A stretch of 64,000 nucleotides of DNA from an uncultured virus (IMG/VR IMGVR_UViG_3300005343_000007) (IMGVR_UViG_3300005343_000007); one strand, 5' to 3'. Positions 1-62,056 are shown, counted from the first letter of the stretch. Numbers and translations: made by a program. Notes: a model not told the origin generated them from the letters alone.

Positions 1-1006
1 GGGCGTTAAACGCTTCTATTTCCGCTTTCTTCTCGGGGCTGGCATTTGGCGGGATTTCCTTCGGTTGCGTCCAATCGTGGCCCTTGGCAAGCCCCAACAC
101 GGTCTTTTCTACTTCCCCGCCCCATTTCTTCCAATGCTCGATGGCCTTTTCTTCCTGCTCCTTGTAGTGCGATTGGCGGTTGGCGATAAATTCGGCTTTC
201 TTGGCTTCGCGCTCCTGCGCCACGCCCTTCCATGCGAGTACCGCGTTTTCAATCTCTCGGGCCTTGAACGGATCGACTTCGCCCACCTTGTCAAGAATGT
301 GCTGTTTCCACCATTGCGCGGAGTAGCTTTGCAGCCCCGTCTTCTTCATTGCCTCGGCGGATTCATCGGGCAATCCAGCCGATTTCAGGAGGTTAAAGAT
401 TCCCGCTTCGGCCTCGCTGGTCTTCTTGTCGAATGTCTCGTTTAGCTCGCGGTCGTCGGAGAATTGGATCTTGGCGCGAAAGTCCTCCAAGTCCTTCAGC
501 TTCTTCTGCAAGGCTTCGTCTACCTTGGGGGCTTTCTCCGCTTCCTCCAGCTTTACCTGAAGTTCCGCGAGCCGTTGGCGCTCGGCTTTGACCGCCTTCC
601 GCTCCCGTTCCGCGATGGCGCGTACCTTGGCAATGTCGGATTTGATCTTCTCCGGCGTGTTCGGCTTGAGCTTGATGGCGTCAAGTTCGGCCTTTAGGTC
701 AGGATCAATTTCCTCCTCTTTGGGGGGCTCTTTGGCTTTCTCGGGCTCGGGCTGCTCTTTGGGTGTCTCTACCTTCTTTTCGGGTTCCGAGGGCGTGGCG
801 GGCTTCGTGGGCGCTTCCTTGGCCGGTTCTGGCGCTTCCTTGGGTGCCTCTTTCGGTACATCTCCTTCCGTGGGAATGGAGGAGAAATCGGGGCGCACTT
901 CGTCCTCGGTCTGGAATTGCGCGGATTGATCGCTCGCCATCGGCAAGTCGGCGGCGTCAATGTTGCCTAGGTCAAAGGCGCGGGGGGAATCAACGGGGTC
1001 GGGCAT
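1..1006 (-). CDS. Scaffolding-like protein (Pro/Glu-rich N-terminus plus coiled coil), 3' end outside the window
   Basis: ATG at 1006 (MPDPVDSPRAFDLG...PKEAPKEAPEPAKE...AERERKAVKAERQRLAEL); frame open to the window edge, so absent from the ORF track; lies downstream of the portal. Confidence 0.55.
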   Translation of the reverse strand, partial: MPDPVDSPRAFDLGNIDAADLPMASDQSAQFQTEDEVRPDFSSIPTEGDVPKEAPKEAPEPAKEAPTKPATPSEPEKKVETPKEQPEPEKAKEPPKEEEIDPDLKAELDAIKLKPNTPEKIKSDIAKVRAIAERERKAVKAERQRLAELQVKLEEAEKAPKVDEALQKKLKDLEDFRAKIQFSDDRELNETFDKKTSEAEAGIFNLLKSAGLPDESAEAMKKTGLQSYSAQWWKQHILDKVGEVDPFKAREIENAVLAWKGVAQEREAKKAEFIANRQSHYKEQEEKAIEHWKKWGGEVEKTVLGLAKGHDWTQPKEIPPNASPEKKAEIEAFNA

Positions 1007-1027
1007 AAATGCAAAATTTGTTAATTT
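1006..1027. repeat. 22-bp palindromic site 1
   Basis: TAAATGCAAAATTTGTTAATTT; spans a stop-to-ATG junction. Confidence 0.8.
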
Positions 1028-1220
1028 ACAGTGCGGGAATCTTCTGCTCCCTCAAAACATCGAGCATCTCGCTCGCAACGTCCCTCCATTTGTCATCCAC
1101 TTCGTAAATCAGGCCCGTAATCACTTGAATCTCGCACCCTGATTTAAGTTGTCTTACTCCAATAATGTGACTGGCATTCAATGCGATAGCCTCACCCGTT
1201 TTGAGCGTCAGAAGCAGCAT
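1026..1220 (-). CDS. Small hypothetical protein, FlbD-like pattern
   Basis: MLLLTLKTGEAIALNASHIIGV...GLIYEVDD resembles the FlbD-family pattern. Confidence 0.4.
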   Translation of the reverse strand: MLLLTLKTGEAIALNASHIIGVRQLKSGCEIQVITGLIYEVDDKWRDVASEMLDVLREQKIPAL

Positions 1221-1225
1221 GGCAG

Positions 1226-1474
1226 TTAGTCCTTGTTCACTTCCACGAATCCCGTAGGGGCGAAGGGATCCGACACGTCCTCCATCATCCGCTCCAATTC
1301 CTCAATCGCCAGATCGAAGCCGTCACGGGTCTTGCTGTTGATCACGGATTCCTCAAACGTCTTTCCTTCCGCCTTGGGTTTCTTACTGCGGAGGACTTCG
1401 ATGATGTGGCGGTGATCGGCGTAGAAGGTCCGCAGGGCTACGGCGTCGTCTTGCGTCCAGTTGGGTTTATTCAT
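1226..1474 (-). CDS. Hypothetical protein
   Basis: 82-aa ORF tightly packed in the minus-strand gene run. Confidence 0.6.
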   Translation of the reverse strand: MNKPNWTQDDAVALRTFYADHRHIIEVLRSKKPKAEGKTFEESVINSKTRDGFDLAIEELERMMEDVSDPFAPTGFVEVNKD

Positions 1475-1844
1475 GGAATTCGTCTTTCTGGGTAAATTGC
1501 TCGATCTTGGCTTCTAGTTCCTGAACCTTATTTTCCAAGTTCGCGATGGAAAGCGCGTTCGGGCTGCCCAATTCCTTCCGCAATTCATCCTCAAATTGAC
1601 CAATAGTTATTCCTCGGCGCTCAAGAATCCGAGCCGCAACCCCGCGCTGGCGTAGGCAAGCCAAAATCATTATTTCGGTGCCGATGTAGCTCACGCCCAC
1701 GGATTCCGCCTCATACGCCAATCCTTGAATGGCCCGTTTTACGCGGGGCGTATATGACAGCAGGGTTTGTTTAGCTTCTTCCTGGCAAACGTATTCGTGA
1801 ATTTCCCGCACAAGATCGTGCGTCGTTTTTGATGGATCGCTCAT
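1467..1844 (-). CDS. Stand-alone Clp N-terminal (Clp repeat) domain protein with C-terminal coiled coil
   Basis: YTPRVKRAIQGLAYEAESVGVSYIGTEIMILACLRQRGVAARILERRGIT matches the ClpA/B/C N-domain repeat (FTPRAK..A..EA..LG..YIGTEHLLL.L..GVAA.VL..LG). Confidence 0.75.
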   Translation of the reverse strand: MSDPSKTTHDLVREIHEYVCQEEAKQTLLSYTPRVKRAIQGLAYEAESVGVSYIGTEIMILACLRQRGVAARILERRGITIGQFEDELRKELGSPNALSIANLENKVQELEAKIEQFTQKDEFHE

Positions 1845-1853
1845 GGTTCGGGA

Positions 1854-1882
1854 ATCCTATCGTTGGGATTCCGCTAGGGCAA
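1854..1882 (-). promoter_or_regulatory. Sigma-70-like promoter
   Basis: TTGCCC-17nt-TAGGAT, 9 nt before ATGAGC at 1844. Confidence 0.5.
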
Positions 1883-2030
1883 GCAGAAAAGGAGAGGGTT
1901 CCTCATCCGATAATTGACAAATTTTGCATTTATCGTGCGCGGCCTCCCATGCGGCCCGTGCGGCGGCTTCTTGGGTTCCGTATTCCTCGCGGCAGCCCTT
2001 TAGTTCCCACCATGCGTCAAAGTCACTCAT
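1857..2030 (-). CDS. 57-aa hypothetical protein (below the ORF-track cutoff)
   Basis: MSDFDAWWELKGCREEYGTQEAAARAAWEAAHDKCKICQLSDEE...; reads through the 1911 palindrome. Confidence 0.45.
   Translation of the reverse strand: MSDFDAWWELKGCREEYGTQEAAARAAWEAAHDKCKICQLSDEEPSPFLLALAESQR
1911..1932. repeat. 22-bp palindromic site 2
   Basis: TAATTGACAAATTTTGCATTTA. Confidence 0.85.
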
Positions 2031-2132
2031 AAATCCGTCTCGTGAGCGGAAATACAGGCTTCAAGCTTGGCTTGCCAAAGGGCAACACGGGCGGATCGCA
2101 AAGGCCGCAGATCGAGATCAACAAGGCGGCGA

Positions 2133-4637
2133 TCATTGCTTGGGGTTCGGCTGTTCTGCCATGCGTTGCGCTTCCAGTTGAATCTTCGCCACTTCCAAGC
2201 CTGATTTCATCAAGTCCTGATCGTTCTTCTCGGCGTTGGTCCGCATATTCGCTGCGTGCTGTTGCGCCTGAAGCTTTAGTTCCTGCTCGTGTAGATCGGC
2301 CTCGCGGTTACGAACGGCCAGTTCGGCGGTATCGGTCAGCGCGGAGAGGACTTCGGGCGGCGGCATTCCGTTGCCGTTCGGACCATTCGGCACCGGCAGG
2401 TTTTCGGGGCTGATACCGCCGTTGGCAAGTTGCTGTTCCTCCATCGCCTTTTGCGCGGTAGTTATGATCTTGCCGAAATCCTGAATCATTTTGGTTTCAA
2501 TCTGAAGCTGTTGCTTGTTGTCCTGTAATTCAAGATCGGCCTGGACGTGCGCGGCGTAGTGCTGGCGCATCAAGTCTGCCGTTCCCGCCAATTGTGGCGT
2601 AGGTGCGGCTTGCAGAGCCTTGGCAAGCGTGCCCATCGGCTTTGCCATTACCTCGCGGTGAATGGCGTGATTGTCGCGCGGGCTCACCGGCATCATGGTG
2701 CCGTCAAAGAATTCGCCATTCTCGACCGTCTGCTTCCAGACCGCTTCCGCTTTAATGGTCTGATCCATTTCCTCGTCAATAATGAGGCGGTGCAATCTAT
2801 CCTGCGGCACCTTCATCGCCTCACCGGCAATCCAAGTGGCCTCGTCTTTATTGATGCGGGGGTTTTGTATTTGCTGGTTGGCCGCGATGAAGTCCAGCGT
2901 GGCCCGGTCGGCATCGTCGGTGGCACTAAGGAGCCCCGCATCGGTCGCGGGCTGATTTGCGAGGTAGGCAATTTCCTCTGGCGTTAAGCCGTCGTTCAGC
3001 ATCTTCACCACGCACTCCACGGCCTCACGATCCGCGATCTTGGATTCGTAGGCAGACTCCACGGGGTTCTTCTGGTCGTTCGTGCCGCTGCCCACGGCTT
3101 TCTTGATCCAATCGAAGATTTGCTTGGCGACTACGCGGATTCCTTCCTTCTCTTTTTTCTTCCGCTCCTCCTGCACCTTGACGGCCTCGCGGATGACGAT
3201 GGGCGAACAAATCTTGCGCTGCATGATCCCGATGCACTCGCCCCATTGCTTGAAATTCCGCCCTAGTACGCCCTGACTGATCTTCTGCCGTGCCGCTGCC
3301 CGCTCGGCGTCCGCGATCTTGGTTGAGGGGGTTTGCTCGCGCACAATCTGCGGCGGGATGAAAGCCCCGGCGATGTCTTCCGCCGTCTCGCGCAAGGCTC
3401 CCCGGATGGCGAGGAATTCGGTGGGTTTGAATTGGATGGTTAATTTAGTAGGTTTGAACGTCTCATCCACCACCATGAAGGGATGAACGTGAACGGGCTT
3501 CATCTTGTTCAGATCCTTGGTAGGTGCCTGGAAGATCGGCATTCCTGACCATGTAAACATATCCAGCGCCATACAAAACGTCCGCTCGGCGGCGATATGG
3601 ATATTCACCAGTTGCCTGCCCTGTCCCTTTGATCCATAGAGCTTCCCGTTGCCCCGTTGCAACGTAAAGAGCATGGTGGCTTCTTCGATGCTCGGGTGTA
3701 GTTCCTCTACGTGCCTTAGCTCCCGCCCTTCGTTGCCATCCACCGTCCATAGTTCCACGGTGCCGTCATATTCCTGTACCACCAGATGATAAAGGCGGAT
3801 GGTCTTTGCGGTGCCGCCTGCGCCGTAGTTGTTCGCGTAAGCCCCCTCGCGAATATTGTCCACCTTATCCAATTCCGTTTCCTCCGATTTGCCCTGGGCC
3901 TTGTTGACGATGTAAACGCAATTCTTGATGTTGTACCCTGCTTCTTCGGCCTTATCCTCGCCAAAGCGTTCGATGAATTCGTGAACCATCAAATACTCCT
4001 CTACCGCGAAGTAGGGGACGCCCTTGCTGTTTTGCTTGGTGCCCTTGGGGAAGAAGATTTGATCGGAGCGGTAAAGCGTGGGTCGCCATTCGACCTCGCT
4101 TGAATCCAGCCATGCCGGGGTGGCATATCCGATTAGCGTATTTTCCCCGATGCTATCGGCCACGAAATCCGACCAACAAGGATCGGCGCGAATCGTGTCG
4201 CTTAGGTGCTTGCGGAATAGCTTGTTCTTTCGGGAGGCATCCGGCCAATCATCCGGCAGTTTGGAATAGGTGAGATATTCAACACGGTTGATCGCGTCCC
4301 GAAACTGCGGCTCAGTTCGGTCGGTAATGCCCGAAAGAAAGAAGTGGGTGAAGTTGTTCCGGTATCCCTGATTCGCCCGCTTGAGCAGCATCGAATTGAA
4401 CGGCGCTTCGCCCCCGTGCTTCGCGTAGATGGTCGCGTTCATCGGAATGCGGTTCTCTTCCGCTTCCTTCTTGAGCCCCTTGCAAATCTGCCACGCTTGG
4501 TCCGCCGTGGTCACCGCCTTGACCGTGGGCTTGCCCTTGCTGTCCAGTTGCGGGTTATTGAGCCGTGAGGAATCTTTGGGCTGATCCTCGGGTTTTACCT
4601 TCGGATCGGGGGGCGCTACGGTTTCGGCGGCTGGCAT
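2133..4637 (-). CDS. Portal protein (podovirus-type, long helical C-terminal tail)
   Basis: 834 aa; size, GKLYGSKGQGRQL segment, Q/A-rich C-terminal helix, position upstream of the scaffold-like gene. Confidence 0.65.
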   Translation of the reverse strand: MPAAETVAPPDPKVKPEDQPKDSSRLNNPQLDSKGKPTVKAVTTADQAWQICKGLKKEAEENRIPMNATIYAKHGGEAPFNSMLLKRANQGYRNNFTHFFLSGITDRTEPQFRDAINRVEYLTYSKLPDDWPDASRKNKLFRKHLSDTIRADPCWSDFVADSIGENTLIGYATPAWLDSSEVEWRPTLYRSDQIFFPKGTKQNSKGVPYFAVEEYLMVHEFIERFGEDKAEEAGYNIKNCVYIVNKAQGKSEETELDKVDNIREGAYANNYGAGGTAKTIRLYHLVVQEYDGTVELWTVDGNEGRELRHVEELHPSIEEATMLFTLQRGNGKLYGSKGQGRQLVNIHIAAERTFCMALDMFTWSGMPIFQAPTKDLNKMKPVHVHPFMVVDETFKPTKLTIQFKPTEFLAIRGALRETAEDIAGAFIPPQIVREQTPSTKIADAERAAARQKISQGVLGRNFKQWGECIGIMQRKICSPIVIREAVKVQEERKKKEKEGIRVVAKQIFDWIKKAVGSGTNDQKNPVESAYESKIADREAVECVVKMLNDGLTPEEIAYLANQPATDAGLLSATDDADRATLDFIAANQQIQNPRINKDEATWIAGEAMKVPQDRLHRLIIDEEMDQTIKAEAVWKQTVENGEFFDGTMMPVSPRDNHAIHREVMAKPMGTLAKALQAAPTPQLAGTADLMRQHYAAHVQADLELQDNKQQLQIETKMIQDFGKIITTAQKAMEEQQLANGGISPENLPVPNGPNGNGMPPPEVLSALTDTAELAVRNREADLHEQELKLQAQQHAANMRTNAEKNDQDLMKSGLEVAKIQLEAQRMAEQPNPKQ

Positions 4638-4656
4638 AAATTGTCCTTATACGCGG

Positions 4657-5058
4657 CTATGGTCGCTTTGGCAATGCGTCTCTGAATTCTTCAAAGTGAA
4701 GCAATTCCCCCACGATGACCCGCGAGACGGCCTTGGTGATCGCTTCCCAGATTCGTTCTTTGACGGCCTCGATCCGCTCAAACATCATATCGCCCAGCGG
4801 GATCGTGATCTTAATTTCCTGGCCGTTTAGGAGAAAGCGGGCGATGGCCGTGGTTTCCATGCGCATACTATCCCGCGTCACGTAAACCTCGCCCTTCAGG
4901 GTGTTATTTTCCAGCTTCGTGTAACCGATGATTTTGTTTAGCGCCGCTTCCTCCATTTCCTTGAGTAAGCGCACGGATTCATCGGTGGGCGCGCGGTGCT
5001 CGTGGGTTTCGTGGTAATGACTTGTTCCTCCGGTTCTTATGCTTATTGCGTCAAACAT
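4657..5058 (-). CDS. Hypothetical phage protein
   Basis: 133-aa ORF (HEHRAPTDESVRLLKEMEE). Confidence 0.65.
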   Translation of the reverse strand: MFDAISIRTGGTSHYHETHEHRAPTDESVRLLKEMEEAALNKIIGYTKLENNTLKGEVYVTRDSMRMETTAIARFLLNGQEIKITIPLGDMMFERIEAVKERIWEAITKAVSRVIVGELLHFEEFRDALPKRP

Positions 5059-5074
5059 GGCATCATTTTTGCTT
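5058..5074 (+). promoter_or_regulatory. Sigma-54-like -24/-12 element (antisense)
   Basis: TGGCATCATTTTTGCTT. Confidence 0.6.
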
Positions 5075-5088
5075 TGGTCACGGCCTGA

Positions 5089-5110
5089 TAATTGACAAAT
5101 TTGCTAATTA
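5089..5110. repeat. 22-bp palindromic site 3
   Basis: TAATTGACAAATTTGCTAATTA, extended by CTGA/TCAG. Confidence 0.95.
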
Positions 5111-5248
5111 TCAGTGAATTGAGAGGCGTACCACCCAAGCGTGCTTCCGCCATCGTAGCTGGCGCACGGCCATGGATAACCGCGAGAACGATACCACGCC
5201 TCTATTTCGCGCATCGTCAAATGACTAGGAAAGAAAACGGTGATCAAT

Positions 5249-5548
5249 TTATTTACTCTCCTTGGTGAAAGCCTGATTGAAGCAGATCGCCCCAGCGGAG
5301 AACGCCAGCCAGTAAAGCGGGGTTTCGATGGGCTCGATCATCCCGCGATACCAAAAGAAAGCCGTCACGGGCGCGCTCATCCAGACCGAAGCGCACCACA
5401 AGCAGCGAATCCCCTCGTGCGCCGATGATTTCTTGCTTGGAAGGTTGCGGAGCTTGCGGAATATCCAGGCGGGGCCGTCCTCGCGTGTCAGCAAGAGCGC
5501 AAGGCGAAACGTCGCGAGGCATCCAAGAATGAAGTAGAACCAAGTCAT
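5249..5548 (-). CDS. DUF1360-like membrane protein
   Basis: LATFRLALLLTREDGP..IFRKLR...CLWCASVW motif and hydrophobic segments. Confidence 0.65.
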   Translation of the reverse strand: MTWFYFILGCLATFRLALLLTREDGPAWIFRKLRNLPSKKSSAHEGIRCLWCASVWMSAPVTAFFWYRGMIEPIETPLYWLAFSAGAICFNQAFTKESK

Positions 5549-5687
5549 CCAGCAATCTCCATTGGCATAGCATCGTATCTAAACGGCGCATTTGGCGATG
5601 CGATTTTGGCGAATCCGCCAAGTTGCATGAGTGAATGCGCATCGGCCAGATTGGCCCATCGAATCCAATTGTTTATTTCTGCTTCGG

Positions 5688-6851: not shown

Positions 6852-7041
6852 GGCCTAAAATGTTCCGAATGGCTTTCTGAGTCACGGGATTAACTCGTTG
6901 ATAAAGCATTGCCGCCATTTCATCGGGAATTCCATTGTCAGCGAGCAATCGCGTTTCGTCAGCCGCGTGCTGGCATTCCAGATTCGCCTCCTCCATGGCG
7001 ATTTCTTCCAATTCTTCCGTGGTGAGAGTGGATGCGTTCAT
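6844..7041 (-). CDS. Hypothetical protein
   Basis: MNASTLTT...; the ATG overlaps the end of the 7041 palindrome. Confidence 0.55.
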   Translation of the reverse strand: MNASTLTTEELEEIAMEEANLECQHAADETRLLADNGIPDEMAAMLYQRVNPVTQKAIRNILGHD

Positions 7042-7062
7042 AATTAGCAAATTTGTTAATTA
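7041..7062. repeat. 22-bp palindromic site 4
   Basis: TAATTAGCAAATTTGTTAATTA; runs from the ssb stop to the next ATG. Confidence 0.95.
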
Positions 7063-7576: not shown

Positions 7577-8200
7577 TTAAATTGAAGAATTTGTTAATTT
7601 CGCGAGCTCGCCCTTCACGCGCTCCAACTCTGCGCGGACGGCGTCGCGCTCGGCTCTGTACTCCACGACCTGCTCGGCGTAAGGGGAGAGTTCGTTCATT
7701 TCAACGAAGCTATGCCCATCGTAGCCGGTGTGATCGGAGATGCGTTGGCCGCAGTGGCAGACGGCTTCATTCCGCTTCGCCTCCTCCTTCGTCTTGGCGT
7801 GGGCGGCGCGCTCTTCGTCCCGGCTGTCACGCCATTGAAGCGCCTGCGTCTCCCATTGACCGGCCCGCTCTTCGGACGCTCGGACGGCGGTGGCGTGCTT
7901 TCCGACAATCTCAGACGCGCTACTTCCAAAGACGAGGAAACTCTTGGCTCCAATAACTATCTGACTGTAGCCGTTTTGCAGGGTTGATGCTGACCATTCC
8001 TCCCTCGCGACATCGACCGGAGCGGCGGGCTGGGGAGAGGCCTTATCCATCCCATTTCGTATGGCTGACACTACTTCCTCCCCGACCGTCTGAGCGGGCG
8101 CTGGGGCGGGATACGGTGTCTCGTCGGGCGATGCTCCACCAAAGCAACGAACAGACTTCTTCTCCTGCTCTGGCGGCAGGTTGCGGGCTTGGTCGTTCAT
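7577..8200 (-). CDS. Hypothetical coiled-coil protein
   Basis: MNDQARN...; ATGA overlap with the upstream ORF. Confidence 0.55.
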   Translation of the reverse strand: MNDQARNLPPEQEKKSVRCFGGASPDETPYPAPAPAQTVGEEVVSAIRNGMDKASPQPAAPVDVAREEWSASTLQNGYSQIVIGAKSFLVFGSSASEIVGKHATAVRASEERAGQWETQALQWRDSRDEERAAHAKTKEEAKRNEAVCHCGQRISDHTGYDGHSFVEMNELSPYAEQVVEYRAERDAVRAELERVKGELAKLTNSSI

Positions 8201-8436: not shown

Positions 8437-9104
8437 GGCTTTGCTCCTTTGAGGGTGGCGAATGCCGCGCAAATCTGGTCGTGTGCATCGAGGATGGTCG
8501 AAAGGGACGCCCCGTTGGCCGTGTAATACTGCCGCGCCAAGTCCCATATGTGGGCCGGGTCGAATGTCGGCAGCGCCTTCTCCAGCGCGTCGCAGTGGGC
8601 TTCTAACTCCTGCTTGGCCGACAGGGCGGCGTCTCGCTCGGCTCTGTATTTAGAGCAATAGTCGTCGCCCTGCATCGCGGTCTTGATGATTTTCGAATTT
8701 GCCTCATCCCGTTCCTTCCGGGCGGCGGCGAGGTCGGCGGTGAGCTTCTCCACTTTCACTTCCATGCCGATCCCTGCGGACCATTCGCGGGACATTCGCA
8801 TGAAGTCCGAGTCCTCAGTCCAATCGTGAGCTAGGTACGGCTCCGGCCTATCGCTGCTCTTCATCATGCCGAACCGAAGGCCCATAGAGTGAACGTATTC
8901 GAGCTTCTCTTTCGCCTGCGCCAACTCGGCGCGAAGGGCGGCGCCTGCGCGGGTGTTCCAGTCGGCCTCCAACATCCAAGCGATGCCGCAATCATGACAG
9001 CGACAGAATCGCCCCTTCTTGTCGCTTCGCATGGTCTGTGGTGGCATCCCGCAGAATGGGCAACTCAGCAACTCGCCCGGCTGATCGGCTGGGTTCATGC
9101 TCAT
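8433..9104 (-). CDS. Lar-like zinc-finger protein with coiled-coil extension
   Basis: LLSCPFCG...CRCHDCG...WNTRA pattern; likely start at 9104. Confidence 0.55.
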   Translation of the reverse strand: MSMNPADQPGELLSCPFCGMPPQTMRSDKKGRFCRCHDCGIAWMLEADWNTRAGAALRAELAQAKEKLEYVHSMGLRFGMMKSSDRPEPYLAHDWTEDSDFMRMSREWSAGIGMEVKVEKLTADLAAARKERDEANSKIIKTAMQGDDYCSKYRAERDAALSAKQELEAHCDALEKALPTFDPAHIWDLARQYYTANGASLSTILDAHDQICAAFATLKGAKP

Positions 9105-9125
9105 AATTAGCAAATTTGTCAATTT
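9104..9125. repeat. 22-bp palindromic site 5
   Basis: TAATTAGCAAATTTGTCAATTT. Confidence 0.95.
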
Positions 9126-9819: not shown

Positions 9820-9841
9820 TAATTGACAAATTTTCTATTTA
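9820..9841. repeat. 22-bp palindromic site 6
   Basis: TAATTGACAAATTTTCTATTTA; overlaps the XRE gene stop. Confidence 0.85.
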
Positions 9842-11755: not shown

Positions 11756-11777
11756 TAATTGACAAATTTTGCAATTA
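11756..11777. repeat. 22-bp palindromic site 7
   Basis: TAATTGACAAATTTTGCAATTA. Confidence 0.9.
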
Positions 11778-13823: not shown

Positions 13824-13845
13824 AAATTGACAAATTTGCTAATTT
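13824..13845. repeat. 22-bp palindromic site 8
   Basis: AAATTGACAAATTTGCTAATTT; at the terL stop. Confidence 0.9.
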
Positions 13846-16018: not shown

Positions 16019-16040
16019 AAATTGACAAATTTGCTAATTA
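16019..16040. repeat. 22-bp palindromic site 9
   Basis: AAATTGACAAATTTGCTAATTA; clamp stop to next ATG. Confidence 0.95.
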
Positions 16041-17960: not shown

Positions 17961-17982
17961 TAATTAGCAAATTTGTCAATTA
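17961..17982. repeat. 22-bp palindromic site 10
   Basis: TAATTAGCAAATTTGTCAATTA; contains the DnaC-like gene stop. Confidence 0.95.
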
Positions 17983-21124: not shown

Positions 21125-21465
21125 CACCTCGGAAGGTAAATGAACACCACCAACCCGCGTTTGCGGGCCTCGGAAATCATATTGGCGGTCCCACGGCTTT
21201 TGCCGTCCCAAATCGCCACCAGGGCGTCCGCGTATTTTGCCATCTCAGCATTGCGCCTATGCCCCGCGCTTTTTCCGTAGGTATCCCAATCGGCAGGGAA
21301 TCGTTTAACCGGCCTGCCTTGCACGCTGGCCCAAAGCTCGCCTCCTTGATCGACGCCGCGAGCGGTGCCGGAAACTACCTCCGTTACTTCCTCGGCGTAT
21401 TCTCGCATGGCGCGACAAACTTCCTCGTATCCGTAACATCTTGAGCCCGCAATGATCGTCTTCAT
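21124..21465 (-). CDS. SLOG/YspA-like (DUF2493) protein
   Basis: MKTIIAGSR...VVSGTARGVD...FPADW..GKSAG.RRN...WDGKSRGT. Confidence 0.85.
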   Translation of the reverse strand: MKTIIAGSRCYGYEEVCRAMREYAEEVTEVVSGTARGVDQGGELWASVQGRPVKRFPADWDTYGKSAGHRRNAEMAKYADALVAIWDGKSRGTANMISEARKRGLVVFIYLPR

Positions 21466-21486
21466 AATTAACAAATTTTACAATTA
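21465..21486. repeat. 22-bp palindromic site 11
   Basis: TAATTAACAAATTTTACAATTA; stop-to-ATG junction. Confidence 0.88.
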
Positions 21487-23537: not shown

Positions 23538-23559
23538 TAAATGCAAAATTTGTCAATTA
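23538..23559. repeat. 22-bp palindromic site 12
   Basis: TAAATGCAAAATTTGTCAATTA; helicase stop. Confidence 0.88.
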
Positions 23560-25597: not shown

Positions 25598-25619
25598 AAA
25601 TTAGCAAATTTGTCAATTA
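25598..25619. repeat. 22-bp palindromic site 13
   Basis: AAATTAGCAAATTTGTCAATTA. Confidence 0.95.
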
Positions 25620-26891: not shown

Positions 26892-26913
26892 AAATTGACA
26901 AATTTGCTAATTA
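26892..26913. repeat. 22-bp palindromic site 14
   Basis: AAATTGACAAATTTGCTAATTA; ERF stop, upstream of the ParB-like gene. Confidence 0.95.
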
Positions 26914-27973: not shown

Positions 27974-27995
27974 AAATTGACAAATTTGCTAATTA
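27974..27995. repeat. 22-bp palindromic site 15
   Basis: AAATTGACAAATTTGCTAATTA. Confidence 0.95.
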
Positions 27996-28934: not shown

Positions 28935-28956
28935 TAAATGCAAAATCTGCTAATTA
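28935..28956. repeat. 22-bp palindromic site 16
   Basis: TAAATGCAAAATCTGCTAATTA. Confidence 0.8.
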
Positions 28957-29464: not shown

Positions 29465-29486
29465 AAATTGACAAATTTTCTAATTA
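29465..29486. repeat. 22-bp palindromic site 17
   Basis: AAATTGACAAATTTTCTAATTA. Confidence 0.9.
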
Positions 29487-30777: not shown

Positions 30778-30799
30778 TAATTGACAAATTTGCTAATTA
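30778..30799. repeat. 22-bp palindromic site 18
   Basis: TAATTGACAAATTTGCTAATTA. Confidence 0.95.
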
Positions 30800-31863: not shown

Positions 31864-33249
31864 TCAAATCCACTTGGGAAGCGCGGCCTTCTTGGTAAAT
31901 GGATTGGCTTTTTCGATCTTAAGCTCGTTGCACATAAGGGCTACGAGCATGGAAAACATCTCTTCCGCCGCGCGCGCCTTGCGTTGCAGGTTCTTCAAAA
32001 CGATTTCCTCGCCCTTGGATGTTACCACGTCAATCGTCACGGGGTTTTTCTGGCCGAAGCGCCAGGACCGGCGAATCGCCTGATACCATTGCTCAAAGCT
32101 ATGCGTGGGGAAAAAGGTCTGGTGGGCGCAATGCTGAAAGTTCAGCCCAAACCCACAGGCGGAAGGCTTGCCGATCAGCACGCGGGTTTTACGATCCACG
32201 AAATCACAAAGTATTTCCTCGCGCTCCTCATCTGTCTGACCGCGCGCGCCCGTAACTTGCCGTGAATCGGGAATCAGCTTTTCCAGCAAATCCCCTTCGT
32301 CGTTTAGGTTGCACCATGCGATCACTGGTCCCTCGCTGGCGTTGATTAGCTCGGCGGCTTTCTCGCACCGATAATCCAAGGTGGCGCGGCGTTCCTGCCG
32401 TTGCTCGGAAAGGTTTTGCGCGATGATCGGAAATAGTTCCCCGCTGGGGATAATCTCCATATTAATGACGTGATTGACAATATTCAGCGGTGGCAGATCA
32501 AACCCCGCGTCCTCAAATCCCAAGTCCGAAGGTTTGCGCACGGCCCGCGCCCATGAGCAAACCCAGCGCCAGAAGTCCCGTTCGGCGTGACCGCGAAAGC
32601 GAAACTTGTCTCCCTTGATTGCCCGCGTGTGGTGCATGGGATGCAGGCTGCCGTTGTTGGCCTTGAAGAACTTGCCGAGCATATCCATGTAGCCCATATC
32701 ACCCACGGCTTCGCTCGATGTACCTAGCTCGATATAATCATTTGGCGCGGCGCAGGCGGTGGCAAGCAGCCTGTATGGCAGAGTGCGCATAAACTCCGTG
32801 ATCGCCGCCTTGGTCTTGCCGTCGAAGTTCTTCAGGATTCCGCTTTCATCGCACACCACGGCCACGAAGTCTGACGGGCTGAATTTGTCCAACTGTTCGT
32901 AGTTCGTCACCACGATTTTACTCCCGTTCAATTTCCCGTCGCGGCATACATGGCACTCGATGCCAAACTTTTCTCCCTCGCGGGCGATTTGATGAGAGAC
33001 AGACAGGGGCGCTAAAACCAAAACTCGCCCGTTCGTTTTGCGCACCACGTTTTCCGCCCAAACCAATTGCATTGGCGATTTTCCGAGGCCGCAATCAGCG
33101 AAGATGGCCGAGCGTCCTTTCCTCACCGCCCAATCCACCAGCGCGGCCTGAAACGGGAAGAGAAAATCTGGCATCCAGATAGGATCGAATCCATGGAATC
33201 CACCCAACTGCGTCTTCTCCTGTAGAAATCCTTCGTAGCTATGGCTCAT
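31864..33249 (-). CDS. SNF2-like SF2 helicase
   Basis: DCGLGKS, CDESG, GFGLNFQ, QAIRRSWRFGQ. Confidence 0.88.
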   Translation of the reverse strand: MSHSYEGFLQEKTQLGGFHGFDPIWMPDFLFPFQAALVDWAVRKGRSAIFADCGLGKSPMQLVWAENVVRKTNGRVLVLAPLSVSHQIAREGEKFGIECHVCRDGKLNGSKIVVTNYEQLDKFSPSDFVAVVCDESGILKNFDGKTKAAITEFMRTLPYRLLATACAAPNDYIELGTSSEAVGDMGYMDMLGKFFKANNGSLHPMHHTRAIKGDKFRFRGHAERDFWRWVCSWARAVRKPSDLGFEDAGFDLPPLNIVNHVINMEIIPSGELFPIIAQNLSEQRQERRATLDYRCEKAAELINASEGPVIAWCNLNDEGDLLEKLIPDSRQVTGARGQTDEEREEILCDFVDRKTRVLIGKPSACGFGLNFQHCAHQTFFPTHSFEQWYQAIRRSWRFGQKNPVTIDVVTSKGEEIVLKNLQRKARAAEEMFSMLVALMCNELKIEKANPFTKKAALPKWI

Positions 33250-33270
33250 AATTAGCAAATTTGTCAATTA
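33249..33270. repeat. 22-bp palindromic site 19
   Basis: TAATTAGCAAATTTGTCAATTA; stop-to-ATG junction. Confidence 0.95.
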
Positions 33271-36500: not shown

Positions 36501-39500
36501 GCTTCTTGGGTTTCTCGCCCCTGGCAATCGCGGCCTCATAATCGGCTATCGCTTGCTCGTATCTAGCTTGGGCTTGGCTCTTTTTATAAGTTGCGGTGGC
36601 GGGATTGTAGTTTTCCGCCGCGTTCAAGGTTAGCATCCTGGCCTTGGCTTGCTCGGGTGCTGCGCCTTGGAATGACTCACCCACCGCATCTGGATTCTTG
36701 GGCGTGCCGGTGTCTGGGAAAGTTCTGATCGGCTCCCCGTTCGCCTTGTAGCCGTTGCGATGATTGCGCGCACGGGTTTGCACGTCCCTTAGAATCGCGG
36801 CGTCTAGTTCGGGGCCGGTCAATCCTTCGTATCCCGTAAGCAAGCCGTTCTCTTTCGCGGCATCCAGAACGTGACGGGTGTTGGACAGGAATTTATCCAC
36901 CGAATAGCCGAAGAGATTCGGCCTGCCATCGTTGGTCAGCTTGGTGAACAGGTAGAGGAAGCCCTTGTTTTTCTGCTCCGTGGCTTTGCCGACTCCCGCC
37001 GCCCTTTCCTCGGGCGTGGAGGCTTCGTATTCCTTCCGGCGCTGCTCGGCGGTGAAGTCTAAATCCCTGCCTTCCCCGACTACGCCCTCTTTCTCGGCGG
37101 AAAGATAATCGACATAGCCGATCTTGCCTTTGAGGTTTTGGAATTGCTGAACCTTGGAAATGGCCTCGGGGCTCAAGCCGCTTTCGGTGAGGATGGCTTG
37201 ATGGATGGGGTTCGATGGATCGACTTCCCCGATCACTTGCGTCTCGCCGTATGGGTCTGTGACACGACGCAATCCAGCGGCGTCCTCTGGAATGGCGTCC
37301 AGAAGGGCGTTTAGTCGGGCTTGGCGGGCTATTCTCGCCCTTCCAGTATCGGTGCGTGCTCTTTGGTACTCGGGACTCGCTACGGCCACTTGCTCTGCCT
37401 GCGCTGCAATATTTTGCACTTCTTCCGGCGTAGGAAGAATGGGAGAGTTCCGTCTAGTTTCTGGAGCCTGCGGACTAGCAAGAGTATCGAGTGGTGCTGC
37501 TTCAGGAGCGAGCGGTAGAGGAGTTTCCGCGCTTTTGATCGCAACATCGGTTTTCGTGAGTGGCCCTAACGCTTCCACGGCTGGCGTGACACTCGCCAAG
37601 GGTTGTGCCGTGGGAGCGGGAGTCGGTTCAATGGGCACGCCTTGCGCAAGCGGGACGGGAGCTTGCGTGGGGACTTTTTGGCTGGCACGTTGCGCAAGGG
37701 CGTTGGCTACCGCATCCGAGAGCGTATCCCCTTGTGCTTGCGCCGCCCAAAGATCGGCTTCCTTCTTGGGTATGCCAACGGCCTGCATCGCCTTGGAGAT
37801 GTCAGCCTGTGAAATTGACAAATTTGCTAATTTCGTCTCGGAAGGTGCTGGGGTTGAGGGGGTTACGGTTTCGGGAACCGGGGTTTCTGGCGCTTCCGCC
37901 CTTTCCACGCGTGGCAATTGCGAGACTTGGCGCAACGTCTCCCGCATCGCTTCCGTTACGCTGCCGATTTCGTCCTTGTTTAGATAGCTGGTCTGCTTTC
38001 CGACCTTGCGCGTGTCGATCCCAAGGAACTTGGCGGCGAATCTGCCTGCGCTTTGCTCTATCTTTTCCGCGAGGCTTTGTGGTAGCGCGAAATCCAATCC
38101 CTCGCCCGCGATGATTCTGCCCGATTGCTCGGCCAAGAATTCTTCCAGCGCCAGCGGATCGTCTGCTTTCAGAATTTCCGTTTGGCCGGATTTGTCGAAG
38201 TTCCGATTATAGGTTTCGATGAAGTTCCTAAACTCTTCGGTCGGCTTCCCGTCTTCGAAGAGTCCTTTCTTGGCTTCACTTAGCAACCCTTCGTGAATTG
38301 CCCCGCCTTTCGCTCCTGCCGCGTTGAGGATCGCGGAAACTACGTGTCCGCCTTCGTGTCCCATCGTATGCGCCAAATCCTCGGAGCCTTGGTGAATATC
38401 GGCATTGAGGATCGCGCGACCGTTCGAGTCAATGAAGTAGCCTCGGCCCCTCGGCCCGTCTCCACCTAGGGCATCTCGCGCGGCGTTATAGTCAGCTTCG
38501 CCCAGCGGGTAAAATTGTGAAACGCCCTCTTCGCCTTTGACTCCCTTGGTCTTGATTCCCTGTAAAACTCCCATCACTTCAAAGATTCGATCCTGCGCCT
38601 CAGGCGAAAGTGATTGAATGTAGGAAAGGGATTTCTTGCCTACCTCGGAGCTAGTATCAAGCGTTCTGCGTCCTTCATCTCGCCAGACGGGTCGGGATGC
38701 CTCAACTAGTATAGGACGATTGGATTTGAGCGCGGCAAAGGTTCCACCAAAAGCCGCTGCCCCCATCGTGGACTCCATGAACTCCTGCGGATCGCCTTCT
38801 GATAGGGCGGCATTCAAGGGCGCAAAGCCCACGGCGGTAGCAGCGCCCGTGGCGGCGGTGTTCCCAATCTTCATTCCCGCCAGCGCCCTTAGATCGGTTT
38901 CTCCGGCCAAGCGGCCAGCCGCTACGCGCGAGGTAAGTTCGCTGGGTGCCCCCGTTATCATTTCCTTGCCTTGGGCTTCCAGTGCTTGCCCGATCTTCTG
39001 TGCGCCCTTAAGCGTAAGTCCAACGGCAGCGGCTTTGGCCGCAAGTGGCAGATGGTTAATTAAATGCGGGGCTGCTTCAGCCAATCCAACGCCAGTTGCC
39101 GCACCGCCTGCTACTTTTGTAAAAAGTCCAGCGGAACCCGCTTTTCTACCAATTATCTCGGTCGCCTTTTCCAATCCCATCATGGGGACTTGCAAAGCTT
39201 TGCCGGTAAGGGTTGTTAGCGCCCCGCCTGCTTTGGCTGCCCCTGGCAACCCCGGCGCTGCCGCCAAGGCCAAATTCACAGGGTTCGCAAAGGTGCGTAC
39301 ATTCTCGACGGTCGAAAGATCGGCTGGCGCGGCCCCAACTTCCCTCAAAGCTTCGGGCGAGTATTCCTCGGTAAGATTCGACCCTTCCCCCGCCATATCA
39401 CCCAGCCCTTTATATAGGGTGTTCACCACCCCGCTATCTACGGGCCTGCCTTGCGATAGGCTAAGATTGGTTCGAGCATTTTCCACCCTGCGCTGAAAAT

Positions 39501-42981: not shown

Positions 42982-43003
42982 TAATTGACAAATTTGCTAA
43001 TTT
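42982..43003. repeat. 22-bp palindromic site 21
   Basis: TAATTGACAAATTTGCTAATTT. Confidence 0.95.
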
Positions 43004-44715: not shown

Positions 44716-45083
44716 AAGGTGTAAAGTAAGAGGTTAGTGGGCGTGAAGCCGAGCTTTTGCATAACTTCGGGCGTGAAGGTGGGGGAGTCTTTGGGCACCA
44801 CGGCAGCGGGGTTACCGCATAGGTTAGCACGTCGCTTAACCATTTCTATGATTTCCTTTGTCTCGCGCGGGGAGCACTCATGGGACAAGGCAGGCCAAAT
44901 CAGGACGGGGTTGGCGATGTAGAAATAACCCTTGGGCTGCCCGTCCTTCGTTACCATGAAAAGCGGCCACGGGGATTCGGTAATTTCGTGATCGAAGCTT
45001 TGGGCAAAAGCCTGCGCCTCTTTCATTTCTTCCTCCGTGGTTACTTCCTCGATGTGTAGACCGGGGTTCACGTTAATTGACAA
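44712..45083 (-). CDS. GNAT-like small protein
   Basis: FMVTKDGQPKGY...MQKLGF; position typical of the podoviral acetyltransferase-like gene. Confidence 0.45.
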   Translation of the reverse strand: MSINVNPGLHIEEVTTEEEMKEAQAFAQSFDHEITESPWPLFMVTKDGQPKGYFYIANPVLIWPALSHECSPRETKEIIEMVKRRANLCGNPAAVVPKDSPTFTPEVMQKLGFTPTNLLLYTL

Positions 45084-45095
45084 ATTTGCTAATTA
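45074..45095. repeat. 22-bp palindromic site 22
   Basis: TAATTGACAAATTTGCTAATTA. Confidence 0.95.
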
Positions 45096-45808: not shown

Positions 45809-45830
45809 TAATTAGCAAATTTGTCAATTA
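45809..45830. repeat. 22-bp palindromic site 23
   Basis: TAATTAGCAAATTTGTCAATTA. Confidence 0.95.
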
Positions 45831-47091: not shown

Positions 47092-47113
47092 TAATTGACA
47101 AATTTGCTAATTT
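47092..47113. repeat. 22-bp palindromic site 24
   Basis: TAATTGACAAATTTGCTAATTT. Confidence 0.95.
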
Positions 47114-47954: not shown

Positions 47955-47976
47955 TAATTGACAAATTTGCTAATTA
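47955..47976. repeat. 22-bp palindromic site 25
   Basis: TAATTGACAAATTTGCTAATTA. Confidence 0.95.
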
Positions 47977-50617: not shown

Positions 50618-50639
50618 TAATTAACAAATTCGCTAATTA
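50618..50639. repeat. 22-bp palindromic site 26
   Basis: TAATTAACAAATTCGCTAATTA; lies between a promoter and its ATG. Confidence 0.88.
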
Positions 50640-52631: not shown

Positions 52632-52653
52632 TAAATGCAAAATTTGTCAATTA
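52632..52653. repeat. 22-bp palindromic site 27
   Basis: TAAATGCAAAATTTGTCAATTA. Confidence 0.88.
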
Positions 52654-55927: not shown

Positions 55928-55949
55928 AAATTGTAAAATTTGTTAATTA
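55928..55949. repeat. 22-bp palindromic site 28
   Basis: AAATTGTAAAATTTGTTAATTA. Confidence 0.82.
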
Positions 55950-58911: not shown

Positions 58912-58933
58912 TAATTGACAAATTTGCTAATTA
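58912..58933. repeat. 22-bp palindromic site 29
   Basis: TAATTGACAAATTTGCTAATTA; supplies the GIY-YIG stop. Confidence 0.95.
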
Positions 58934-59823
58934 TTCAGCGTGATGGGTTGAGGGGTGGGGTGCTGGGTGCATTCGTCAGTATATTTCCAGACGTAGCCGT
59001 AAGCCATTTGGGTTCGTCCCTTCAGGTTGCAGCAAATATTCGCGGTGCATCCGTTGATCGCTTTTGCCGCCAGTGTCACCGATGGGTGAACCGCGATCAG
59101 GGCTCCCGTTCTGGTATCAAATTGAGAAATCGAACGCCAATATATCTTGCGGGTTTCGGTACGCCTCGCAATGGCTTCTTGGCTCATTGGCTTGCGATGG
59201 CACTTCACGCCACTCGCCCTTCGCTGCGCCTTCTTGGAATTGGCGTATCGCCGCTGCGCCGCTGCGCGCATTTTGGCCTTAGTCTCTTCTGTCTTCGGAA
59301 TCCCTCTTGCTCCCTGCGAGTTTTTGATTCGGTGCTCTAGGGTTTGCGTTTTTCCGGTAAGCGCCTTTTTTACCGCCTCTGCCACATGAGGAGGGCGCGG
59401 CACGCCCTTCTTGAGCGCACTCATCCTAGCCTTGTGCTCCTCGGTATGGTGTCGCCCCAGAAAAGACTGCGTGGGGTGCAGGCAGATATTGAATCCGTCC
59501 TCTACCGCCTTTAGGGATCGGATGTAGTAAAGTTCCAACTCGCAAAGATGGCAGGCATCCGCGAAAGCTAGCACCGTTAACTCGAATGCCTCTTCCCCAT
59601 ATTTCCGAATGGCATTGTATAACTTCGGGCTCGATCTGGGTCGAACGCGGGCGCAGGTCCGATGCTCTCCAATTCTCTTCCGCAGGCAGGTTGTTTGACC
59701 AACGTAAAATCTACCCGTCCCGATAAGTCTAAGCGCGTAGATGCACGGCTTGCGCGCAACCACCGAAAGATCGAGTTGGGTAGTGAACATGGCGACAATT
59801 CTAGGCTGAATCGGGTAGAACAA
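58927..59823 (-). CDS. GIY-YIG homing endonuclease with NUMOD3/NUMOD1 repeats
   Basis: CIYAL...FYVGQT..LRKRI..H; HHTEEHKARMS, KTEETKAKM; AYGYVWKY. Confidence 0.88.
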   Translation of the reverse strand: MFYPIQPRIVAMFTTQLDLSVVARKPCIYALRLIGTGRFYVGQTTCLRKRIGEHRTCARVRPRSSPKLYNAIRKYGEEAFELTVLAFADACHLCELELYYIRSLKAVEDGFNICLHPTQSFLGRHHTEEHKARMSALKKGVPRPPHVAEAVKKALTGKTQTLEHRIKNSQGARGIPKTEETKAKMRAAAQRRYANSKKAQRRASGVKCHRKPMSQEAIARRTETRKIYWRSISQFDTRTGALIAVHPSVTLAAKAINGCTANICCNLKGRTQMAYGYVWKYTDECTQHPTPQPITLNN

Positions 59824-61287: not shown

Positions 61288-61309
61288 TAATTGCAAAATT
61301 TGCTAATTA
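61288..61309. repeat. 22-bp palindromic site 30
   Basis: TAATTGCAAAATTTGCTAATTA. Confidence 0.9.
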
Positions 61310-61320
61310 TTTTCGGACGC

Positions 61321-61354
61321 AAAAGACCCCGCTCAGATTGCTCCAAGCGGGGTC
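61321..61354 (-). terminator. Rho-independent terminator
   Basis: GACCCCGCT-N12-AGCGGGGTC-TTTT. Confidence 0.8.
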
Positions 61355-61578
61355 CAAGGTTTGTTCATATTCGCCCATTTGACGGATCGGGCTTACGGCT
61401 TGATCCGCTCTCTCGGTATCACGCCCGAGTGCTATGGGTTTAGCCTACTCCCCAATACCCATCGGGGGTGCTGGTTTTTAGCCAGCGCGGCACATCAGTA
61501 GAAAACGGAAGGGGTTTCATATTTGAGCCAATGTACTTTCGCGCATCCCACTCGGGAGCAGCGGTTTTTCAGTGGAGG
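61321..61578 (-). ncRNA. Candidate ~255-nt structured RNA
   Basis: Bounded by promoter TTGCGG-18-CATGAT (61583-61612) and the terminator; serial hairpins. Confidence 0.4.
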
Positions 61579-61625
61579 CTGAATCATGCCACAAGCGTTC
61601 CGTGCGCCGCAAGCACTTTTTCGGA

Positions 61626-61967
61626 TTATTTTTCGGTAGGCTGCTGCTTGTCGCCTGCACCGCTCATGGATTCCTTGCGCTGGCGATCCACGGGCTCAAT
61701 CGGATCGGGCAAGCCGGAAGTACCAGCGGCCACCACTTCGGGATGAAGCTCCCCATCCTGGCCGTGGAGGTTGCGGTTGGGTTCATGGACGAAGGTGCGT
61801 CCCTCGGTTTCCTGCCCCGTCATCACGCTGTTGTTTTGGTTCGGCTGGCGAATCTTCTGCTTCTTGGTGCCAGCGGGTGCTTCGCCGGTTTGGCGTTCGA
61901 TTTCCTGCGCTTCGGCGGATGCGCCCTCAAGATTCGGATCAAGGCCGGGGGTATGTTCTAGTTTCAT
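61626..61967 (-). CDS. Hydrophilic hypothetical protein
   Basis: 113 aa. Confidence 0.6.
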   Translation of the reverse strand: MKLEHTPGLDPNLEGASAEAQEIERQTGEAPAGTKKQKIRQPNQNNSVMTGQETEGRTFVHEPNRNLHGQDGELHPEVVAAGTSGLPDPIEPVDRQRKESMSGAGDKQQPTEK

Positions 61968-62003
61968 GCTCCTGATTCGTTTTCTGGCCTCCCATCGGTC
62001 TTA

Positions 62004-62020
62004 TGGCACACTATTTGCTT
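62004..62020 (+). promoter_or_regulatory. Sigma-54-like -24/-12 element (antisense)
   Basis: TGGCACACTATTTGCTT. Confidence 0.7.
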
Positions 62021-62034
62021 ACTCGCCAAGCCGA

Positions 62035-62056
62035 TAATTAGCAAATTTGTCAATTA
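62035..62056. repeat. 22-bp palindromic site 31
   Basis: TAATTAGCAAATTTGTCAATTA. Confidence 0.95.

Follow-up and report, generated by a model that had tools for sequence, protein, structure and literature searches.

Why does a phage chromosome carry some thirty copies of one AT-rich palindrome, nearly all of them between genes? The question is raised by an uncultured virus (IMG/VR IMGVR_UViG_3300005343_000007), of whose 68,254-bp contig a stretch of 64 kb (64,000 nucleotides, hereafter the window) was analysed. An original prediction, made from the sequence alone, had listed 31 copies of a 22-bp near-palindrome in this window, and its consensus TAATTGACAAATTTGCTAATTA was used for scanning; all coordinates are window positions. 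The analysis suggests, at a probability that we put at roughly 45%, that these motifs are docking (loading) sites at the DNA level for a dimeric phage DNA-binding protein, most likely P0011, a partner-less member of the ParB/Noc/KorB family encoded in the same genome, which would make them a lattice of the KorB type.

The motif family is real and well delimited. At up to three mismatches the window yields 26 matches at 25 positions, and 100 of 100 dinucleotide-preserving shuffles yield none. At up to six mismatches exactly 32 positions are found, namely all 31 listed starts (0–5 mismatches, nine exact) and 7579 (five mismatches); beyond the listed starts the looser scan adds only this one position, and the family is therefore sharply set apart from background. 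Of the two degenerate copies that had been suspected, the one at 7579 therefore stands, while the other, near 27768, is weak (9–10 mismatches in that register). Two further copies lie in the remaining 4 kb of the contig, giving a total of about 33 sites on the 68-kb chromosome and bearing out the genome-wide spread that had been claimed. The base composition likewise agrees with that prediction: G or C occupies 4 of 22 letters (82% A/T) in a window of about 50–60% GC, and the copies account for about half of the 61 AT-rich islands of the window. An independent Logan assembly of the one DNA run that contains the phage matches positions 1–20000 with zero differences; it was made from the same reads by another assembler and thus speaks only against an artefact of one assembler. 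Two records that might have passed for relatives (G001 and G005) were ruled out as identical pieces of the same phage.

Information content is limited to positions −1 to 23 and falls to zero outside, which defines an element of 22–24 bp. The flanks, followed for 60 nt in both directions, show no second conserved box, whether the copies are aligned by motif or by gene direction. Inside the element, the A/T tracts TAATT, AAATTT and AATTA are nearly invariant and the triplets bearing G or C more variable. The symmetry is imperfect: positions 6–7 (GA) and 16–17 (CT) break the palindrome, a departure that is conserved among the copies. Almost every gene is on the minus strand (18,187 versus 2,110 aa under greedy picking of open reading frames, ORFs). 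Read in gene sense, 10 copies show TTGACA and 21 show TTAGCA (7 versus 17 after seven ambiguous copies are dropped), confirming that both orientations occur. Two orientations on a one-strand genome fit two-fold symmetric recognition and not a directional signal.

Thirty of the 31 copies are intergenic. The 31 junctions with a gap of at least 17 nt carry the motif, and the 50 junctions without it mostly overlap or nearly touch. At 24 of 32 sites the stop codon of the upstream ORF ends inside motif positions 0–7. The distance from the motif to the next start ranges from −1 to 161 nt; for 12 of 31 sites it is between −1 and +4 nt. The original prediction that the motif may span from a stop codon to the A of the next ATG is correct for 7041, 21465 and 33249, and the last base is likewise shared with the ATG at 9104 and 1006. 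In either orientation the motif holds stop codons in two of the three sense frames (TAA at 1–3; TGA or TAG at 5–7). It is consequently confined to gene junctions or, with T1 changed to A, to an in-frame tolerant linker. The one copy inside an ORF, at 37812, is such a T1-to-A case: it encodes KLANLSI within a poorly conserved linker of a 2178-aa protein, whose 6.5-kb gene is the sole gene too long to leave a junction and bears its copy in frame. Homologues of the surrounding region amount to one distant relative, in which the linker cannot be aligned at this point. Junction placement, stop supply and start contexts follow from coding incompatibility together with genome compaction and need not reflect a role in expression.

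The spacing is more even than expected by chance. The mean interval between the 31 sites is 2034 bp with a coefficient of variation of 0.55, compared with 0.97 under uniform placement (P = 5e-5) and 1.03 under random choice among gene junctions (0/20,000). No gap exceeds 5.2 kb, compared with a largest gap of 8.1 kb on average under uniform placement (P = 0.025). A band of 1936–2195 bp, picked after the data had been seen, takes in ten of 30 intervals (P about 0.01). The densest cluster, with six sites in 25.6–30.8 kb, surrounds the P0011 gene.

P0011 belongs to a family with five members among 5.8 billion proteins. Its five-row AlphaFold model has a mean predicted local distance difference test score (pLDDT) of 68, with values of 76–91 across residues 60–165. 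Compared by Foldseek, the first ~165 residues match Noc (7nfu_B, E 5.5e-5), ParB (6sdk) and KorB (8qa9) as top PDB structures (E 5.5e-5 to 2e-4, probability 1.00, about 160–167 columns), and sulfiredoxins rank next; the family profile matches sulfiredoxin weakly (E 0.46). The homologues P0012 and P0018 match PHROG 1033, 'ParB-like partition protein' (5e-10 and 4e-7), and one GenBank phage match of P0011 is annotated as a parB-like nuclease domain. In four of the five family members the helix-turn-helix (HTH) is followed by an AT-hook (GRGRPR/SRGRPKK), then by a disordered linker and a helical C-terminal domain. This last domain is predicted to form a homodimer (score 0.67 versus 0.00 for the best control; contact agreement at least 98%, partner pLDDT at least 89). 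Among proteins of solved structure, 20 of 30 pairs and 1 of 23 single chains attain the score mark used; because ParB-family dimers are solved structures, the pass may reflect likeness to known dimers. Pfam and PHROG scans of 57 + 57 + 9 ORFs found no ParA/CbiA-type ATPase and no integrase, and such scans of the ORFs found no repressor. The ParA-contact motif (L/F/I)G(K/R)G(L/F/I) is absent from the P0011 sequence.

Table 1. Copies of the 22-bp motif in the window and genes of candidate reader proteins
Feature	Position	Strand	Remarks
Motif copy	1006..1027	+	5 mismatches, orientation ambiguous; last A = A of next ATG
Motif copy	1911..1932	+	4 mismatches, variant ...AAATTTTGCATTTA
Motif copy	5089..5110	+	exact
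Motif copy	7041..7062	-	1 mismatch; occupies entire stop-to-ATG gap
Degenerate motif copy	7579..7600	+	5 mismatches
Motif copy	9104..9125	-	1 mismatch; end overlapped by ATG
Motif copy	9820..9841	+	2 mismatches; overlaps HTH_31 gene stop
Motif copy	11756..11777	+	3 mismatches
Motif copy	13824..13845	+	2 mismatches; abuts large terminase gene stop
Motif copy	16019..16040	+	1 mismatch; occupies entire gap (TAA ... ATG)
Motif copy	17961..17982	-	exact
Motif copy	21465..21486	-	3 mismatches; occupies entire gap
Motif copy	23538..23559	-	4 mismatches, variant
Motif copy	25598..25619	-	1 mismatch
Motif copy	26892..26913	+	1 mismatch; 26 nt upstream of ParB-like gene (P0011)
Motif copy	27974..27995	+	1 mismatch
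Motif copy	28935..28956	+	4 mismatches
Motif copy	29465..29486	+	2 mismatches
Motif copy	30778..30799	+	exact
Motif copy	33249..33270	-	exact; occupies entire gap
Motif copy	37812..37833	+	2 mismatches; in frame (KLANLSI) within 2178-aa ORF, variable linker
Motif copy	42982..43003	+	1 mismatch
Motif copy	45074..45095	+	exact
Motif copy	45809..45830	-	exact
Motif copy	47092..47113	+	1 mismatch
Motif copy	47955..47976	+	exact
Motif copy	50618..50639	+	2 mismatches
Motif copy	52632..52653	-	4 mismatches, variant
Motif copy	55928..55949	+	4 mismatches
Motif copy	58912..58933	+	exact
Motif copy	61288..61309	+	2 mismatches; 15 nt past sole strong intrinsic terminator
Motif copy	62035..62056	-	exact
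P0011, candidate reader, 357 aa	25792..26865	-	ParB/Srx-like N-domain, HTH, AT-hook (GRGRPR), disordered linker, C-terminal dimerisation domain (predicted)
Xre-type HTH_31 protein, alternative candidate reader, 96 aa	9835..10125	-	profile match

Dispersed palindromes also occur in other phages with a P0011 homologue. A terminase 76% identical to that of the phage comes from a relative on a 69.7-kb Logan contig, which also encodes the P0011 homologue P0012; IMG/VR holds no terminase closer than 37% identity, and GenBank phages hold no terminase match. Exact and degenerate motif scans of IMG/VR returned this phage's own contigs as the only multi-copy ones, and terminase relatives at 30–37% identity show no comparable repeat. 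Besides the phage studied here, palindromes are dispersed in the complete 74-kb relative G411 (six copies) and in MW202545.1 (eight copies), the only GenBank phage with a P0011-like domain. G411 is rich in GCGATC-type words, and its P0011 homologue has no AT-hook. It holds six exact copies of a 25-bp palindrome, TCAACTGCGTTTWAAACGCAGTTGA, at 2362, 18645, 30223, 37205, 44875 and 62260 (L396–L399), each flanked by a T- or A-run. In MW202545.1 (L400) the palindrome is 17 bp long, TACTAGTCWGACTAGTA, with exact copies at 66, 10176, 10203, 27597, 34033, 43566, 49119 and 49148, of which two lie inside the parB-like gene and two just upstream of the large terminase gene; a methyltransferase gene neighbours the parB-like gene. 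No palindrome exceeds three copies in G412 and G413, two complete relatives with no P0011 homologue.

From the sites, their symmetry-like behaviour and even spacing, and from the fold and predicted dimer of P0011, we infer that the protein binds the sites and acts from them. In a P0011 dimer, the two HTH domains would read the inner site and the pair of AT-hooks would occupy the outer AATT minor grooves. From ~33 sites lying ~2 kb apart, it could then cover, organise or transcriptionally modulate the entire 68-kb chromosome, much as KorB does from its OB sites on the IncP plasmid RK2. Noc–NBS and ParB–parS are further systems of this kind. Plasmid and phage each encode a protein of ParB fold that has an HTH and dimerises through its C-terminus (in P0011 by prediction), and in both many copies of one palindromic site are distributed over 60–70 kb at variable distance to gene starts. 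RK2 carries 12 OB sites, whereas the phage has about 33, which are 22–24 bp long, 82% A/T and imperfectly symmetric. The phage further differs in that no ParA/IncC or KorA-like partner was found, in its Box II and AT-hook, in being a phage without sign of lysogeny, and in that the pairing of protein and site is a proposed one. Action over kilobases is known for KorB, which according to an excerpted study slides up to 1.5 kb from its site (PMC11790492), the right scale for a 2-kb site spacing; other ParB-family proteins activate or counter-silence transcription, as an excerpt of a further study states (PMC13768133).

The original prediction had gone as far as proposing that one dimeric protein coats or silences the entire chromosome. 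The part that concerns the protein and its sites is indirectly supported by the encoded ParB/Noc/KorB fold with its AT-hook and predicted dimerising C-terminus, and by sites that are orientation-independent, self-contained and evenly spaced; binding, coating or silencing is still conjecture, and an Xre-type or a host factor could read the sites. An extended version, which we regard as doubtful, holds that in this virulent phage a partner-less ParB-family protein gained an AT-hook, loads at ~33 evenly spaced AT-rich sites, and coats, compacts or globally gates transcription of the whole chromosome. In this version the lattice would also have shaped the gene map, because the site is untranslatable in two of three frames, and the sites would have become intergenic spacers that supply stop codons and start contexts.

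Several points weigh against P0011 as the reader. The known sites of ParB-family proteins measure 13–16 bp and contain G/C, in contrast to the longer, AT-rich element found here. The conserved asymmetry at positions 6–7 and 16–17 is unexpected for a perfectly symmetric dimer, and neither this nor the possible orientation bias of 7:17 among clear copies (two-sided p about 0.06, by hand count) is explained by the P0011 model. P0011 itself has no match in Pfam or PHROG. In place of the canonical Box II, GERRxRA, it has EGFTR (across the family, EGF(T/H)R), which makes CTP-clamp behaviour uncertain; ParB folds as such are able to bind CTP, ATP or GTP, as stated in excerpts of PMC12704722. The co-occurrence of palindromes and P0011 homologues rests on a set of five genomes in all, and the G411 palindromes look like identical bidirectional terminators, so that only two of the three positive cases are clean. 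P0011 may also have another job, given that phage ParB-fold proteins frequently accompany methyltransferases (PMC12704722, in the same excerpts), as the neighbour of the parB-like gene in MW202545.1 illustrates. By analogy, an alternative job would be DNA modification together with a PAPS-reductase-domain protein. Pairs of a ParB-like and a PAPS-reductase protein, as in IbrA/IbrB, have been put forward as systems of DNA modification. The genome that encodes P0011 also has a gene for a PAPS-reductase-domain protein, at 43003–43854 (−). The Xre-type HTH_31 protein (Table 1) could be the site reader instead. Finally, every site stands at the head of a block of translationally coupled genes, an arrangement that would equally fit an expression signal, and the same 20-mer is a promoter-upstream element in Bacteroidota, so that a host factor could read the sites.

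The closest printed analogue of the lattice is a repeat of the Cluster O mycobacteriophages. In Corndog and its relatives, excerpts of the original description report more than 30 copies of a 17-bp dyad, TGTTCGGNNNCCGAACA, throughout a ~70-kb genome, with no meaningful orientation and mostly away from predicted promoters (PMC4351075). According to the same excerpts, these phages lack an integrase and parAB and encode, as the present phage does, a ParB-like domain protein and a beta clamp. Their authors predict a dimeric binding protein, assign no function to the repeat, and consider the ParB-like protein unlikely to serve genome stability (PMC4351075). The two cases differ in that the sequences are unrelated, the mycobacteriophage host is GC-rich, and many Corndog copies lie inside ORFs in the excerpted account (PMC4351075), as opposed to the 30 of 31 intergenic copies found here. 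A tblastn search with P0011 at E <= 1e-3 reached no Cluster O phage. The phage shows the Cluster O-type pattern of more than 30 orientation-free dyad copies not tied to predicted promoters, a likeness of kind and not homology.

The stoperators of L5 and other Cluster A phages are similar in that dozens of copies of a short site lie in short intergenic gaps genome-wide, with a proposed role in silencing. They serve a temperate phage as binding sites for its immunity repressor, and neither a repressor nor an integrase was found in the ORF scans here. Stoperators are moreover asymmetric and oriented with transcription, according to the excerpts of PMC4351075. L5-type identity was thus rejected, as the present site is near-symmetric and occurs as 10 and 21 copies by orientation on a one-strand genome. 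A literature search for a ParB-type site lattice in lytic phages found none, and among the matches listed only the Cluster O work describes a dispersed dyad repeat in a phage; the word 'palindrom' is absent from the text of the ParB-fold survey. The lattice belongs to a known but functionally unexplained kind of repeat, to which a concrete, testable candidate pairing of protein and site can here be added.

Among the rival explanations, those that place the function in gene expression draw on the same junctions. Each motif might be a compact, self-contained promoter that is recognised by a phage sigma, or else by host RNA polymerase aided by a phage factor, with transcription starting at the motif's 3′ edge and producing a leaderless or short-leader mRNA for every block of coupled genes in a host without Shine-Dalgarno (SD) use. 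This is unlikely, although the motif's presence at 31 junctions with a real gap and the 12 starts that nearly abut it are what such a promoter would give. SD-like words precede 58 ATG starts at background frequency (14/58 versus 24.5%), so that the host probably does without SD use. An in-frame ATG lies 23 nt past the copy at 37812, the one strong intrinsic terminator of the window lies 15 nt before copy 61288, and the motif core CAAATTTG resembles the Bacteroidota −7 box TAnnTTTG. In this box, as excerpts on Flavobacterium johnsoniae describe it, T-12, A-11, T-8, T-7, T-6 and G-5 are nearly invariant, the start lies 4–5 nt downstream, and AT-rich motifs occur at −18 and −28 of Bacteroidota promoters (PMC6847099). 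In the phage, however, the position equivalent to T-12 is C in 26 of 31 copies, A in five and never T. Neither a −33/−35 partner nor a −10/−7 box shows conservation, whatever the spacing, both orientations occur despite one-strand genes, the distance to the start reaches 161 nt, no RNA polymerase or sigma factor was found among the scanned ORFs, and neither the even spacing nor the in-ORF copy is needed for a promoter. A Bacteroidota sigma-A promoter was rejected on the T-12 place and because no TAnnTTTG follows the motif's TTTG at any site; TTG-N17-21-TAnnTTTG has only three matches on the sense strand, all inside coding regions by comparison with ORF coordinates. Also rejected were a sigma-70-like reading of TTGACA with a −10 box 17 nt later (no conservation at positions 27–32), a T7-type phage RNA polymerase promoter (mixed orientation, no RNA polymerase family match) and an intrinsic terminator (weak hairpin and no T-run, position 23 being T or A with no conservation after it). 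The 834-aa and 726-aa proteins gave no family match and no PDB sequence match. Considerably less probable than a promoter is a role of the motif in RNA, as a processing site or as a termination–reinitiation spacer that lets ribosomes move on from the stop codon before it to the start codon behind it. In 24 of 32 cases the motif either provides the stop codon or begins there, and it frequently ends at an ATG; moreover, an A/U-rich, nearly unstructured stretch favours initiation without SD (PMC6847099, in excerpt). Yet 22 conserved letters far exceed the need of an unstructured spacer, the hairpin is weak (−0.5 to −5.5 kcal/mol in four of five folded copies, with a z-score below −2 in two of five), and the two orientations yield different RNAs. 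Terminal variation follows stop and start codons and not pairing, starts may be 60–160 nt away, even spacing is unexplained, and Rfam gives no match.

The other rivals look to the host or to the copying of the motif itself. A factor of a Bacteroidota host (RNA polymerase sigma or alpha, or a nucleoid protein) that normally reads AATT-phased octamer arrays upstream of host promoters could be recruited or titrated by the phage. This is improbable, though less so than a role in RNA. Single exact copies of the 20-mer are found in about 130 metagenome stretches, and species genomes have it at 31 loci, 25 of them in Bacteroidota. Among 401 sampled Bacteroidota genomes it has 26 matches at up to two mismatches, in 12 genomes and with at most five per genome, as opposed to none for the reversed control. 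There it belongs to tandem arrays of units such as AATTGACA and AATTTGCT, and what look like real sigma-A promoters (−33 TTTG/−7 TAnnTTTG) take their −33 TTTG and AATT tracts from it: of 66 distinct loci, 21 have a TAnnTTTG box 19–20 nt after its TTTG, compared with 1 of 66 in the other orientation. At other bacterial loci it stands 2–14 nt before the ATG of housekeeping genes or just past a stop. The motif is thus a genuine word of Bacteroidota promoter regions, which the phage carries at about 500 times the density; a literature search on the letters of motif and array found no description of either. SD sequences are lacking in the phage, which also encodes a PUR-like protein, of a family common in Bacteroidota. 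On the other side, the phage has about 55% GC compared with 27–46% at all bacterial motif loci, no −7 box follows any phage site, the core has C where T-12 is nearly invariant, phage intergenic DNA contains no canonical Bacteroidota promoter, and the bacterial orientation rule is not kept. Bacterial copies are too rare for a general signal, and AT-rich octamer arrays could yield the 20-mer even if no reader is shared. The original prediction had named an equal density on the host's chromosome as the sign of a host-factor site; the 401 sampled Bacteroidota genomes do not show it, with at most about 1 copy per Mb versus 0.5 per kb in the phage. Least probable of all these is that the copies mark boundaries of recombination or mobility, either as identical short sequences for module exchange, the alternative that the original prediction had named, like the PeSL cassettes of T4-type phages, or as copies of a tiny mobile element. 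Conserved asymmetry, nine identical copies and no mixed half-site combinations do resemble copying by descent, the sites bound gene blocks, and the phage encodes an Erf-type annealing protein and three homing endonucleases. Against this, joints between sites in the Logan assembly are only 23–24-nt cross-matches of the motif itself, and were dismissed as such together with its loose ends. There are no target duplications and no flanking conservation, the ORF scans found no recombinase or integrase, 21 direct copies would invite lethal deletions, and the analogous Cluster O repeats do not lie at rearrangement points in the excerpts of PMC4351075.

Further features of the genome were recorded alongside. 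Functional calls comprise a large terminase, a sliding clamp, a DnaC-like loader, helicases, a single-stranded DNA-binding protein, the Erf-type annealing protein, tail fibres and the 2178-aa protein, which is a polyvalent protein. No tRNA genes were found in the phage, and a search of the ESM Atlas returned viral clusters only. The PUR-like protein (74 aa, 22575–22799, −) matches the PurA ssDNA/RNA-binding (PUR) family at E 6.6e-9. Three free-standing homing endonuclease genes, two HNH and one GIY-YIG, lie at 21870–22493, 42293–42634 and 58927–59823 (−), none of them specifically bracketed by motif copies. Two very basic, Lys/Arg-rich small ORFs of 46 and 38 aa (30640–30777 and 28824–28934, −) start 22 and 43 nt past two motif copies and may encode nucleic-acid-binding peptides. 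In the Bacteroidota genomes and metagenome contigs (L121–L279), tandem arrays of 8-bp units such as AATTGACA, AATTTGCT and AATTGGCA lie just upstream of promoters or start codons of lpxD, hemW, hisF, ffh, mreB and purE, housekeeping genes unrelated to one another. Several six-letter palindromes are strongly avoided in the window (observed/expected: CGATCG 0/38, CGGCCG 0/27, TGGCCA 0/24, CTCGAG 0/15, CCGCGG 1/32), which suggests heavy restriction pressure from the host; restriction avoidance of AATT itself was rejected as an explanation, with 243 copies outside the motif and 295 expected.

Two other repeats accompany the 22-mer. One is a 7-bp inverted repeat, GGAATCC...GGATTCC, around a conserved CAACGAT/ATCGTTG loop, with about five copies in both orientations (about 33538–33560, 28908–28935, 7550–7575, 1855–1880 and 50650–50675), mostly 15–30 nt before an ATG. 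The other, AACGCTTGCGGCA, is found on the minus strand throughout, exactly at 9741, 13723 and 30237, with one mismatch at 17864 and 61587, and with two at 23510 and 61276. ATGAGC follows 13–15 nt on in five copies (9741, 13723, 17864, 30237 and 23510), in four of them as ATGAGCAAA. The repeat resembles a cassette of leader plus start, and several long gaps have it 60–90 nt downstream of the 22-mer. AGC is the second codon after 15 of 58 ATG starts.

If the extended version is true, the phage would represent an undescribed and perhaps widespread mode of phage chromosome organisation, which could also explain the Cluster O repeats, without an assigned function since 2015. ParB-fold proteins are common in phages and mostly uncharacterised, as excerpts of their survey state (PMC12704722). 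If the lattice is where P0011 loads, two puzzles would be joined, that of the dispersed palindromes of non-temperate phages, which dates back at least to 2015, and that of these proteins, and long-range control of the KorB type would be extended from plasmids to virulent phages. An AT-hook combined with an AT-rich site carries a built-in prediction of specificity, with one protein and one 22-mer to test. The case also illustrates how a signal at the DNA level may dictate the positions of gene boundaries.

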